Part shown: positions 15,937 through 50,740 of the stretch, piece after piece
How positions within the stretch are numbered: the first letter of the stretch is position 1
Layout: the number at the start of each line of letters is the position of its first letter
Sequence record: NC_014792.1
Length of the DNA stretch: 64,000 bases
Origin: Escherichia phage vB_EcoM_VR7
Reading direction: 5' to 3' (one strand)
The notes under the pieces: generated by a model
Database searches by the model: none
Told to the model about the DNA's origin: nothing
The model's input: only the letters and a program-made list of their open reading frames with translations
Position numbers and translations under genes: made by a program

Positions 15937-17436
15937 ATGGATATCAAAATCAACTTTTTAAATTTTAGTCATGTACATGTTGAATGTGAAGATAGTATCT
16001 TCTATGAACTCCGTGACTATTTCAGTTTTGAAGCCGAAAACTATCGGTTTAACCCTAAATTCAAAGCGGGAGTTTGGGACGGACGTATCCGTCTCCTGGA
16101 TTATAACCGTAAATTACCATACGGCTTAGTTAACCAGATTAAAAAATTCGCTGACCAGTTTGGTTATTCATTTTGGATTGACCCTCAAATCACCGAGAAA
16201 GAGGAAATCTCTCGTGCGGATTTCGATAAATGGGTCGAGTCAAAAGAAATCTATTCAGGCCATACCAAGATTACTCCCCATTGGTACCAAACAGACGCCG
16301 TATACGACGGTCTGGTCAACAGAAGAAAGATATTGAACTTACCTACGTCTGCAGGTAAAAGCCTCATCCAGGCGCTTCTGGCGCGATATTATCTCGAGAA
16401 CTATGAAGGCAAGGTTCTTATCCTTGTACCTACAACCGCGCTTGTTGACCAGATGATTAACGATTTCGTCGATTACAGATTGTTCCCTCGAGAAGCTTGT
16501 CTCGGTATCCGTTCCGGAACTAAACGTGATTCAGATGCAATGATTTATGTGTCTACTTATCAGACGGCAGTAAAACAACCTAAAGAATGGTTTTCACAGT
16601 TCGGTCAGTTTATGAATGATGAATGCCATATGGCTACTGGTAAATCCATTTCGACTGTTATCGAAGGCCTGACTAATTGTATGTTTAAATTTGGTCTCTC
16701 TGGTTCTCTCCGTGACGGCAAAGCAAACCTTATGCAATATATGGGTCTGTTTGGTGATATCTTTAAACCAGTATCCACATCCCAATTAATGGATGAAGGC
16801 CAAGTTACTGACCTTAAGATAAATAGTATTTTCCTTCGTTACCCTGATGAATTCACCGTTAAAATGAAAGGCAAATCTTATCAAGATGAAATCAAGGTAA
16901 TTACAAAAGCTACACGTAGAAATAAATGGGTAACAAACCTCGCACTCAAGCTTGCTAAAAAAGATGAAAACGTCTTTTTGATGTTTAAGAATATCGAGCA
17001 TGGTAAATCGATGTTTGAAATGCTTAAGGAAGCAGGTCATGAGAACGTGTATTATGTTTCTGGGGAAGTTGATACAGAAACACGTAACGCATTAAAGGTC
17101 ATGGCAGAGAATGGAAAGGGAATTATCGTTGTAGCTTCATATGGTGTATTCTCGACGGGGATTTCCGTTAAAAACCTCCATCATATTATTTTCGCTCACC
17201 CGGTCAAGTCAAAGGTAATTGTACTCCAGACAATTGGTCGTGTACTTCGAAAACATGAATCCAAATCGCAAGCAAACGTTTTTGATATCGTGGATGATAT
17301 GGGTGTTAAACCTAAATCGGCAAATGCTAAAAAGAAATATGTTCATTTGAACTTCGCCCTAAAACATGGCCTTGAACGTATACAACGATATGCTGATGAA
17401 CGTTTTAACTATGTAATTAAACAGGTGGAAATATAA
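15937..17436 (+). CDS. uvsW: UvsW DNA/RNA helicase
   Basis: Matches T4 UvsW from MDIK...; helicase motifs (LNLPTSAGKS, DECH); ORF-track start 15898 is a TTG extension overlapping the promoter. Confidence 0.95.
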   Translation: MDIKINFLNFSHVHVECEDSIFYELRDYFSFEAENYRFNPKFKAGVWDGRIRLLDYNRKLPYGLVNQIKKFADQFGYSFWIDPQITEKEEISRADFDKWVESKEIYSGHTKITPHWYQTDAVYDGLVNRRKILNLPTSAGKSLIQALLARYYLENYEGKVLILVPTTALVDQMINDFVDYRLFPREACLGIRSGTKRDSDAMIYVSTYQTAVKQPKEWFSQFGQFMNDECHMATGKSISTVIEGLTNCMFKFGLSGSLRDGKANLMQYMGLFGDIFKPVSTSQLMDEGQVTDLKINSIFLRYPDEFTVKMKGKSYQDEIKVITKATRRNKWVTNLALKLAKKDENVFLMFKNIEHGKSMFEMLKEAGHENVYYVSGEVDTETRNALKVMAENGKGIIVVASYGVFSTGISVKNLHHIIFAHPVKSKVIVLQTIGRVLRKHESKSQANVFDIVDDMGVKPKSANAKKKYVHLNFALKHGLERIQRYADERFNYVIKQVEI

Positions 17437-17663
17437 TGAAGTCATTTGAAGAAATTATGTATGAAGCGGCAATTGAAAGCTTCATGTCTAAGATAGGTTC
17501 TTGTCAGACCATGGACGGTCTGAAGGAGCTGGAAGGTTATTATAAAAAGCGCAGCAAAGAAGCTGAATTGAAAGATTCCGATGATATCAGTGTTCGCGAT
17601 GCTCTAGCAGGTAAACGTGCCGAGCTTGAGGATATGGACGACGAAGAAGACGAAGATTTCTAA
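17436..17663 (+). CDS. uvsW.1: UvsW.1
   Basis: 75 aa with acidic tail directly after uvsW, as in T4. Confidence 0.8.
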   Translation: MKSFEEIMYEAAIESFMSKIGSCQTMDGLKELEGYYKKRSKEAELKDSDDISVRDALAGKRAELEDMDDEEDEDF

Positions 17664-17720
17664 ATAAAAAGGCCCCAACCAAAAAGGAAGGGGCAAAACC
17701 AAAATGGTTAACAACACTAG

Positions 17721-17888
17721 CTAAATTAAAAGTTGGGTCTCGTTCAGTTGCTCTTGAGTATTTTCCGTAACTGGCAAACTCTGAACATAATTATAACAGG
17801 CGCCCGGATGCACCGGACCTTGGTCTGTATCCACAACCAATGCAGAATCGATTGGAGTTTTACAGACAACACAAATCTTATCTGACAT
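17721..17888 (-). CDS. Small Cys-containing protein (55 aa), possible uvsY.-2 equivalent
   Basis: Manually translated, below ORF-track cutoff: MSDKICVVCKTPIDSALVVDTDQGPVHPGACYNYVQSLPVTENTQEQLNETQLLI; GAGGAG SD; downstream of uvsY on the same strand. Confidence 0.4.
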   Translation of the reverse strand: MSDKICVVCKTPIDSALVVDTDQGPVHPGACYNYVQSLPVTENTQEQLNETQLLI

Positions 17889-18021
17889 GATTGTCTCCTC
17901 AGTTAAACTTACATATCTATTTAGTGCTTCTTTAATGCGGCATTAATAAACTGTTGAAATTCACGCATCTTCTCTTCAGAAGGTTTTAATGGTTTTCTAA
18001 TATTTGCTTTACGACAACCCA

Positions 18022-18456
18022 TCATTTACCTGCCTCAAATTGTCTTATTTCTAACATATGTTTAAGTGCGAAACTTCGTGACTTAACACCATCTAATGCA
18101 GCGCTACAGAAGTCCTGGAGCAGTGCCCAATATTGAATTGAAGTATCAATCTTAAGCACGCTTGAATCTGCAGCCATGACTGTTTTCAATTCTGACTTCT
18201 CGTACACATCCATGCATACTTCTTCCCCTGGGTCACCCCTTCCTGTATAATGGTCTAGTCGTTTTTTCAGTGCAGTCTTCTTCTGAATCTCAAGACGCAT
18301 TATTTCTTTCTTGCAGTTAGTATACAATCTCAACCATTTGCTATGCAACAAAACGTTGTTTTGTGTTTCATATTGAATTTGTGTACCATCAATTTTTAAA
18401 TCTGCATCCAACTCATCCTGAAATACTTCCAACTTATATTCAATCTCTGTTTTCAT
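18022..18456 (-). CDS. uvsY: UvsY recombination mediator
   Basis: Strong similarity to T4 UvsY (YSKWL, KKEMLRIE.QKK.ALK.RLD.Y.GRGD, KSE.KTV..AD..VLK.DTS.QYW); start at internal ATG; MotA-type middle promoter upstream. Confidence 0.93.
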   Translation of the reverse strand: MKTEIEYKLEVFQDELDADLKIDGTQIQYETQNNVLLHSKWLRLYTNCKKEIMRLEIQKKTALKKRLDHYTGRGDPGEEVCMDVYEKSELKTVMAADSSVLKIDTSIQYWALLQDFCSAALDGVKSRSFALKHMLEIRQFEAGK

Positions 18457-18482: not shown

Positions 18483-18511
18483 CCATTATACAGCCATAAA
18501 ATTAAAGCATT
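18483..18511 (-). promoter_or_regulatory. MotA-dependent middle promoter for uvsY
   Basis: Minus strand reads TGCTTTA, 12 nt, TATAAT. Confidence 0.65.
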
Positions 18512-18899
18512 AACCGTTTTGACTTAACTGAATCCTGATTTGTTCGAGGGTGTCAGGGTCATCAACAATGCTGAACTGAACCGTTACGATGATGGAGTTA
18601 TCATCATACATAGGGACAACCGCAACCTGTAGATTGCTTATCCTTGGTTCGAAGTTCCGCACCGCGGAGACGATGTTGCGTTTAATAGTATCTGTGATTA
18701 ATGGAGTGATATTCTCAAAAAGCTGATTACTTATATCACATCCAAATTCAGGCATAAAAGGCCTTGACCCTTTTCTTGTGGTGATTATTCCCAGAAGACT
18801 GTTCTTAACAGACCTTGCACCAGTTACTTTAGCAACGTCTTTATCCCAACTCATTGACAAGTCGGGAGGCACATCGCTATACATTTTGTTTATATTCAT
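18510..18899 (-). CDS. 25: Baseplate wedge subunit gp25
   Basis: NINK.YSD...KNSLLGIITTRKGSRPF.PEFGCD.S.QLFEN.TPL..DT..RNI.SAVRN.EPRI, near-identical to T4 gp25. Confidence 0.93.
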   Translation of the reverse strand: MNINKMYSDVPPDLSMSWDKDVAKVTGARSVKNSLLGIITTRKGSRPFMPEFGCDISNQLFENITPLITDTIKRNIVSAVRNFEPRISNLQVAVVPMYDDNSIIVTVQFSIVDDPDTLEQIRIQLSQNG

Positions 18900-49828: not shown

Positions 49829-50740
49829 TTAAAGGCCAGCCAGAAGGTCGTCAAGACCATCATCAGAAGGCTCTGGAGTGCTTGGAGCAGTCGCAGTGCG
49901 TTCAGACTTAGCAGGTTTGTTGGAAGTGAAGTCTTCCATATCTTTATCAAAATCGTCCAGGTCAGCGCCCAGTTTATCAGCTTGTGCAGCAGCTTTAGAA
50001 GCAGCACCGCCGAGAGCAGCCGTACCCATTACTTTAGAGAATTTCTTCTGATTCTCTTCAAGGGATTTAAACACCAGCAATTCATTCAGGTCAGACATTT
50101 CGTCCCAAAGTTTTTTCTGGAACGCTTCATCATTGATGCCAGCGATTTCAGACTGGTTCATGAATTTGGAATCATCGTAGTTTTTATAACCGGAAACCAT
50201 TTTAGATTTCAGTACGAAGTTCGCACCTTCAAAAGGACAAGTTACATCAATAGCTGTTTCGCCCATGTCAACATCGACTTCAACCATCTGGTTGATTTTG
50301 TCCATGATTTTCTTACCGAAGCGGTATTTGAATACTTGACCTTCGTTAGACGGAACAGCAGGGTCTTTAATGACCAGGATGTTAGCCCAGTAAGAAGTAT
50401 TACGCTTCAGTTTACGATATTCGGATTCGTTTGTATTGTACAGGTCATTCTTATTCATGTACGCACACACAGGACAGTTTTCATAGTCGCCGTGAGTAGA
50501 AGTACAGTTTTCAATATACCATTGACCAGCATTTTTAAAGCCGTGGTTAACCAACTTAATGAACGGAGATGGATTTTCTTCATTCTTAGAAGGCAGGAAA
50601 CGAATAACCGCAGAGCCGACGCCATCAGTATCTTTCAGTTTCCATTCTTTTTTATCGTCAGAAGAGAAACCGGCACCACCTTTCAGAGCGTTCAGGGAAG
50701 CGGCGAGGTCAGCTGGGTTACGACGTTTAAACATAGACAT
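49829..50740 (-). CDS. 32: Single-stranded DNA-binding protein gp32
   Basis: Strong similarity to T4 gp32 ([78 protein letters not shown]); acidic C-terminus. Confidence 0.97.

Follow-up and report, generated by a model that had tools for sequence, protein, structure and literature searches.

What do the small open reading frames (ORFs) between uvsY and the convergent genes uvsW.1 and uvsW encode in Escherichia phage vB_EcoM_VR7, and are they the counterparts of uvsY.-1 and uvsY.-2 of phage T4? The question arises in a stretch of 64,000 nucleotides (nt) from this genome (NC_014792.1; here called the window, with positions counted from its first letter), where the original prediction had placed two ORFs on the minus strand after uvsY: one of 34 amino acids (aa) whose start overlaps the uvsY stop, and one of 55 aa with a CxxC...C pattern and a GAGGAG Shine-Dalgarno (SD) sequence. 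Both are present as described (Table 1). Length by itself is not significant at this locus, as a mechanical list gives 41 ORFs of at least 20 aa inside 3 kilobases, and the case for both small ORFs therefore rests on conservation in relatives. Both are indeed conserved among relatives, which lifts them above chance. We hold with good, though not complete, confidence that this is a uvsY operon in which the 55-aa gene is uvsY.-2 and the 34-aa gene is a real gene for an accessory peptide, distinct from uvsY.-1. What is new is the 34-aa gene as an unannotated member of a small existing family; the 55-aa gene was already known, and the result is an ordinary one.

The original prediction had further proposed that the pair may be T4 uvsY.-1 and uvsY.-2, which is borne out for the second ORF and fails for the first. 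The 55-aa protein (MSDKICVVCKTPID...NETQLLI, with C6-x-x-C9 ... C31) matches Pfam DUF2685 (PF10886) at 99.9 bits against a cut-off of 25 (E 9e-29; residues 3–54 on model positions 1–54 of 55) and phrog_1043 at E 4.4e-29, and its alignment with T4 UvsY.-2 spans all 55 residues at 80% identity (E 2e-35). The T4 protein (NP_049797; PF10886; phrog_1043) is of equal length and has the same C-x2-C...H-x3-C arrangement and EQLNETQLL tail, and its gene agrees with that of the window in its SD (GAGGAGACAATCATG) and in its site between uvsY and the convergent uvsW.1/uvsW. Nothing of substance differs between the two, apart from a perfect TATAAATA upstream in T4 where the window has ACTAAATA. On this comparison the 55-aa gene is an orthologue of T4 uvsY.-2, already known and annotated; the annotations of phages VR25, VR26 and SP18 already give it that name.

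The UvsY.-2 family is widespread: out of 50,697 phage records, 1241 give a tblastn match, and these include phages of Escherichia, Klebsiella, Acinetobacter, Vibrio and Aeromonas. Across its subfamilies C6, C9, K10, G24, H27, G29, C31, E42, E50 and L54 are invariant, and in the closer set so is the whole tail EQL.ETQLL. The window protein has C6, C9, H27, C31 and the C-terminal L..E..LL, and its gene lies downstream of uvsY and converges with uvsW.1/uvsW, as in the family. Two distant Straboviridae differ in arrangement: uvsY.-2 follows gp25 with no uvsY annotated nearby in Acinetobacter phage PhT2 (L051, 1501-1668), and in Cronobacter phage LPCS28 (L054, 1498-1671) its place is upstream of uvsY, from which a single annotated gene separates it. 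Linkage of uvsY.-2 to uvsY is thus frequent without being universal.

The protein is acidic (charge -5.4). An AlphaFold2 model built from a 20-sequence alignment has a predicted local distance difference test score (pLDDT) of 79–88 (10-residue block means) over residues 1–40 and about 50 in a disordered tail; it contains a CxxC knuckle, a beta-hairpin at 19–26 and a helix at 30–37 starting at the His/Cys pair (H27/C31). In a Foldseek search of the PDB, the model came closest to LIM half-domains, GATA fingers and ribosomal zinc ribbons (2ehe, 1nyp, 2dlo; root-mean-square deviation 1.6–2.3 Å over 27–33 columns), and a PDB sequence search gave chance matches only. The likeness of residues 1–38 to treble-clef and zinc-knuckle modules is one of fold type only, without sequence homology or membership of those families (matches at E of at least 0.2). 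Most likely, the roughly 38 N-terminal residues fold around one zinc held by C6, C9, H27 and C31, as a treble clef or zinc knuckle of the C2HC kind, and the tail motif LxExxLL-hydrophobic-COOH most likely docks on another protein. In T4, dCas13d knock-down of uvsY.-2 was scored 'Semi-Fit' and rescued by complementation, and uvsY.-1 and uvsY were 'Not Fit' in the same conditions (PMC11879866). UvsY.-2 occurs in over 1,200 phage genomes and contributes to T4 fitness, and its invariant C2HC site and C-terminal motif offer concrete targets for mutation.

The 34-aa ORF (MMGCRKANIRKPLKPSEEKMREFQQFINAALKKH) requires a longer argument. Its ATG overlaps the uvsY TGA as ATGA, and relatives of its product were found by tblastn in about 48 phage records. 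The loci examined comprise 12 from phages, the window included, and two metagenomic contigs, and they cover Gaprivervirus, Dhakavirus, Kanagawavirus and two metagenomic lineages. At every one of them, VR25 and TH15 among them, the order is uvsY, mini-ORF, DUF2685 gene; in all lineages the mini-ORF start overlaps or abuts the uvsY stop (ATGA, TAATG or TAAATG), and the SD of the following gene is kept as (A/G)AGGAGACAATCATG. A set of 14 distinct sequences, 55–70% identical to the window in nucleotides, carries a coding signature. The mini-ORF frame is free of stops in all 14, every other frame has stops in some members, and one antisense frame is open in only 6 of the 14. Mean pairwise diversity at the three codon positions is 0.27/0.24/0.38 for the whole ORF; for the conserved C-terminal block it is 0.24/0.15/0.39. 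Compared with other lineages, the mini-ORF gives a nonsynonymous divergence (pN) of 0.22–0.37 and a synonymous divergence (pS) of 0.55–0.80, hence pN/pS of 0.31–0.49; inside the subtype of phage QL01 the corresponding rate ratio (dN/dS) is 0.07–0.23. K14, Q24, F26, I27, A30 and L31 are invariant in the family. The N-terminal half is nearly free to vary between subtypes, and the block (K/R)M..(F/L)Q.FINAAL, which in the window reads KMREFQQFINAAL, is held through synonymous changes.

These patterns bear directly on the possibility that the 34 codons are a chance frame in a non-coding spacer, conserved on account of a signal in the DNA or RNA, for instance a promoter or the 5' leader of uvsY.-2. 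Short ORFs are abundant here, this one is unannotated in the closest relative, VR25, and a collection of 15 billion proteins has no exact copy of its sequence, the nearest cluster there being nameless. Its 3' end, moreover, abuts a late-promoter-like TAAATAG that is conserved as far as T4, and the codons for 'AAL' (GCN-GCN-TTA) resemble, by eye, the MotA-box core GCTTTA in some lineages. A spacer element does not account for a frame that stays open throughout the set with third-position variation even within FINAAL (TTT/TTC, GCC/GCG/GCT, GCA/GCT), nor for a start codon that stays at the uvsY stop in all lineages. The ORF region has no Rfam match above threshold and folds no better than its shuffles (z +0.53), so that an RNA explanation was rejected; in many relatives uvsY.-2 follows a gap of about 30 nt without mini-ORF sequence. 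A chance frame is accordingly improbable, and the 34-aa ORF is, as judged from its conservation, a real protein-coding gene of a separate narrow family that consists of phrog_25483 and its wider relatives.

The window protein matches phrog_25483 at E 1e-4 and in part (residues 10–31); E is 4.9e-27 for QL01-type members, and 2e-6 and 1e-4 for intermediate subtypes. The proteins of phrog_25483 type (QL01_188, PSD2002_0129, CPT_CIP9_010 and QYN80360 of Kosakonia phage 305) are 32–35 aa long and share with it the conserved block, the synteny and the coupling to uvsY. A distinct subtype, 42–67% identical to the other members, is made up of the window, VR25 and TH15 proteins; it ends in KKH instead of (S/R)NK, is unannotated in VR25 and is nameless in the databases checked. 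Annotation across the family is uneven, with a hypothetical protein called in some genomes (QL01_188, PSD2002_0129, CPT_CIP9_010) and nothing in JS98, Bp7 or VR25. When 1.84 billion representative proteins were searched exhaustively with the family profile, the matches were five representatives of 32–35 aa and one spurious multi-stretch protein of 1072 aa; with only five representatives found, the family is very narrow. Pfam, NCBIfam and PADLOC gave no match to the 34-aa protein and no functional hint, and a PDB sequence search with it gave chance matches only.

Could this gene be a locally shortened uvsY.-1, for example a truncated or deleted remnant? It occupies the site directly 3' of uvsY with an overlapping start, as uvsY.-1 does in T4, VR26 and SP18; a single BLASTP comparison aligns it weakly with the first 26 residues of T4 UvsY.-1 (7 of 26 identical, E 0.03); and VR26 has 239 nt more in this region. 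The position is one that all occupants of the slot have in common, and the BLASTP alignment is driven by the KKH ending, which is absent from the rest of the 34-aa family. In a profile-profile comparison (hhalign) of the family with UvsY.-1 the probability is 0.18%. T4 UvsY.-1 matches phrog_1541 at E 6e-47 and the window protein has no match to it, falling instead in phrog_25483. The charges are opposite (+5.6 for the 34-aa protein, -7.3 for UvsY.-1), and both the UvsY.-1 core DHP(C/V)GEDV(L/I)Y(I/V)KGKFAGY and its length of about 61–77 aa are missing in the 34-aa ORF. T4 UvsY.-1 (NP_049798; PF26882; phrog_1541) therefore shares with the ORF only the site after uvsY and the overlapping start, and differs in length (74–77 aa) and in distribution (695 phage records against about 48).

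The sister Gapriverviruses VR26 and SP18 are particularly informative in this regard. Both have a true 77-aa uvsY.-1 directly after uvsY and then a further 36-aa ORF; the flanks are identical to those of the window and VR25, and the segment between the last uvsY codons and AGCACTAAATAG is different, being 239 nt shorter in the latter pair. The DNA between these cassette junctions cannot be aligned with uvsY.-1 of VR26 or with its downstream ORF, and the real relatives of the 34-aa ORF are found in Dhakavirus and Kanagawavirus, where the ORFs are just as short. Thus the window, VR25 and TH15 carry a replacement cassette in place of uvsY.-1, a remnant of uvsY.-1 is very unlikely, and on the sequence evidence the 34-aa ORF is not uvsY.-1. 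Separately, three metagenomic UvsY.-1 relatives of 70 aa (P0036-P0038) match T4 UvsY.-1 for about 25 residues and then continue in an alternative frame (…FILKENLPDILMNIFILKIWALICI) that is also present in T4 as an overlapping ORF; these proteins look like products of natural uvsY.-1 frameshift variants.

The space between uvsY and uvsY.-2 is a variable slot. Among 34 IMG/VR loci containing uvsY.-2, the slot is empty (about 30 nt) in 13, holds uvsY.-1 alone in seven and uvsY.-1 with a second small ORF in three, and carries the 32–35-aa family in six; the remaining loci have a 222-aa Seg-type homing endonuclease (phrog_314, E 5e-17; two loci), an MKNISK-type ORF alone (VR20), a shortened 29-aa derivative without INAAL (L041) or two other ORFs (L033). 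The cassettes that were compared (mini-ORF, MKNISK-type ORF, T4 uvsY.-1 and endonuclease) have a common end, TAAATAG, just 5' of the uvsY.-2 SD, and three slot states occur inside one genus with flanks that are 95–97% identical. The shared junction and the three states in one genus mark the slot as a recombination-prone accessory position, next to which uvsY.-2 is the conserved component. The locus thereby shows how T4-like genomes keep a fixed uvsY/uvsY.-2 frame and swap small accessory genes or a homing endonuclease in a slot of 30–700 nt.

The MKNISK-type family (MKNISKILDEMVISANRIT...) is a second group of basic proteins, 36–38 aa long, and occurs in 37 phage records. Its ORF follows uvsY.-1 in VR26 (L003, 1118-1228, minus strand) and SP18 (L002, 1811-1921, minus strand) and is directly coupled to uvsY in VR20 (L019, 1856-1972); it is unannotated in these three phages and in ECML-359. 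No homology to the window family was detected with hhalign (probability 0.27%). In some Dhakaviruses the Seg-type endonuclease (L023, L024; 1304-1972) replaces the mini-ORF at the same TAATAAATAG junction. An origin of the 34-aa ORF as a stump of this endonuclease was considered and rejected, as their similarity is confined to the final codons, TAATAAATAG, where the cassette ends.

The occupancy of the slot is also relevant to a different explanation, in which the mini-ORF is translated merely as a relay that carries ribosomes from uvsY to uvsY.-2, protecting the mRNA or opening the ribosome-binding site, and the peptide itself is irrelevant. The coupling to uvsY in every lineage would suit a relay, as would the unrelated MKNISK-type ORFs at the same place in VR20, VR26 and SP18 and an N-terminal half that is nearly neutral between subfamilies (pN about equal to pS for CIP9 against QL01). 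A pure relay has no need of amino-acid-level conservation in the C-terminal block with synonymous changes. Moreover, uvsY.-2 has its own strong and invariant SD, 28–32 nt past the mini-ORF stop, 13 of the 34 surveyed loci have uvsY.-2 without any upstream ORF, and no inhibitory RNA structure is predicted, so that the relay is improbable. A fusion with UvsY by frameshift or readthrough was likewise rejected: no slippery heptamer is present, and lineages vary in their stop/start junction (ATGA, TAATG, TAAATG).

With the 34-aa ORF taken as a gene whose peptide matters, its predicted features allow a role to be proposed. The product has an isoelectric point of 10.3 and an N-terminal half rich in proline and lysine (RKPLKPS). 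AlphaFold2 predicts one helix at residues 17–32, with block means of pLDDT up to 96, behind a basic, disordered N-terminus. The helix is amphipathic, with a hydrophobic moment of 0.44 against 0.23 for shuffled sequences, about 5% of which reach 0.44. Given the overlapping or abutting stop and start codons found in each lineage, ribosomes ending uvsY most likely re-initiate on the 34-aa gene, and re-initiation would yield its product simultaneously and in step with UvsY. The product is most likely a dispensable accessory peptide. Its helix carries the conserved block and would bind a partner through the hydrophobic face; for the basic N-terminal tail, rich in lysine, arginine and proline, the proposed contact is an acidic surface or nucleic acid. 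The coding status of the 34-aa protein is well supported; its mode of action is what we infer.

At least two unrelated families of 32–38-aa peptides, basic (+5.6 in the window, +4.5 for the MKNISK type) and probably helical, have independently come to lie just upstream of uvsY.-2, the invariant gene for an acidic protein with a putative zinc knuckle and docking tail that matters for growth in T4. It is conceivable, though improbable, that these mini-peptides act interchangeably as partners or regulators, either of UvsY.-2 itself or of the target of its tail; a candidate for that target is a component that reads the acidic tail of gp32 or SSB in recombination-dependent replication. If true, this would be a small and previously unrecognised regulatory module on the UvsY mediator operon.

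Several points weigh against the reading of the locus given here. The 34-aa family is tiny (five representatives and one spurious match in 1.84 billion proteins), so that about 100 nt from a few lineages are all that enters the selection statistics. Selection on the mini-ORF (pN/pS 0.31–0.49) is weaker than on uvsY (0.12) or uvsY.-2 (0.14–0.27), and the support that its product is made consists of evolutionary signatures. Overlapping stop and start codons are common across T4-like genomes and do not by themselves establish a functional link to UvsY. One locus (L041, 1877-1966) has a 29-aa variant, MGNRTWKSYKKDKPSDVRIQKFLRFICNK, without the INAAL block; this may be a decaying copy, as would fit a dispensable gene, and the variant together with the many empty slots indicates that the 34-aa peptide is dispensable. 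For UvsY.-2, the Foldseek matches are non-significant (best E 0.2), and zinc binding and tail docking are likewise inferred.

For annotation the gain is modest. The 55-aa gene takes the label uvsY.-2 (DUF2685), and the 34-aa gene merits a coding-sequence call in the window phage, VR25 and TH15, for which the name uvsY.-1 is unsuitable.

The surrounding region is 97.4% identical to that of Escherichia phage VR25 (T4-like; Straboviridae, genus Gaprivervirus) and has the gene order gp26, gp25, uvsY, small ORFs, and convergent uvsW.1 and uvsW, as does T4. The minus-strand genes uvsY, the 34-aa gene and uvsY.-2 form a three-gene operon, which probably runs from a MotA-type middle promoter to a hairpin with a U-run (Table 1). 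For uvsY, the SP18 annotation gives an alternative 154-aa ORF starting at 18486 and the VR25 annotation a 435-nt version, which corresponds to the 144-aa start at 18456; the latter is likelier because the 154-aa start falls inside the -10 hexamer.

Table 1. Coordinates of features at the uvsY locus of the window
Feature	Position	Strand	Basis
Probable MotA-type middle promoter of the uvsY operon (12-nt spacer)	18485..18512	-	direct reading
MotA box TAATGCTTTA of this promoter	18503..18512	-	
-10 hexamer TATAAT of this promoter	18485..18490	-	
uvsY (recombination mediator), 144 aa, start MKTEIEYK	18022..18456	-	Pfam UvsY, E 7.9e-50
uvsY stop codon TGA	18022..18024	-	
GAGG, 7 nt upstream of the 34-aa ORF	18033..18036	-	
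34-aa mini-ORF	17921..18025	-	ORF reading and relatives
ATG of the 34-aa mini-ORF	18023..18025	-	
ACTAAATA, right-hand cassette junction, late-promoter-like	17918..17925	-	aligns with TATAAATA, 2 mismatches
SD GAGGAG of uvsY.-2, 6 nt before ATG	17895..17900	-	direct reading
uvsY.-2 (DUF2685), 55 aa	17721..17888	-	Pfam and T4 comparison
Intrinsic-terminator-like hairpin GCCCC...GGGGC, then CUUUUUAUUU	17662..17694	-	fold -17.7 kcal/mol, z -2.6
uvsW.1, 75 aa, convergent neighbour bounding the locus	17436..17663	+	Pfam UvsW-1, E 7.4e-25

The MotA box and -10 hexamer are a probable promoter, the layout matching that upstream of T4 uvsY (AATGCTTCA, 12 nt, TATAAT), where the oriF/uvsY promoter has been described as MotA-dependent (PMC3016281). 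A generic sigma-70 scan did not detect the uvsY promoter, as expected because it is without a -35 box. At the other end, the terminator-like hairpin begins about 27 nt past the uvsY.-2 stop and its U-run abuts the stop codon of uvsW.1, so placed as to terminate the uvsY operon between the convergent uvsY.-2 and uvsW.1; the range of the original prediction, starting at 17664, also takes in this element. A pattern scan missed the hairpin because the 13 nt between its arms, with an inner 2-bp stem, exceed the 3–8-nt loop limit. The only Rfam match was a sub-threshold hit to AniS on this terminator (24.7 bits, with the threshold at 50).

The right-hand cassette junction has a further aspect. In T4, TATAAATA is the established late-promoter consensus. 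A perfect copy (2186-2196 on the minus strand of the T4 locus) overlaps the uvsY.-1 stop just upstream of uvsY.-2, and Dhakavirus and Kanagawavirus have AATAAATA at the late-promoter position. With its two mismatches, it is doubtful that ACTAAATA acts as a late promoter in the window. Since the match varies among T4, Dhakavirus/Kanagawavirus and the window, uvsY.-2 may own a late promoter in some lineages only.

Endonuclease genes also lie between uvsW and uvsW.1 in SP18, Bp7, UGJNEcP3 and PSD2002, and the uvsW-uvsY neighbourhood is a hot spot of homing endonucleases. In the window, UvsW.1 (…DMDDEEDEDF), gp32 (49829-50740, minus strand; …GLDDLLAGL) and UvsY.-2 (…EQLNETQLLI) all have acidic tails and hydrophobic C-termini, a similarity of style that might point to competition for partners.

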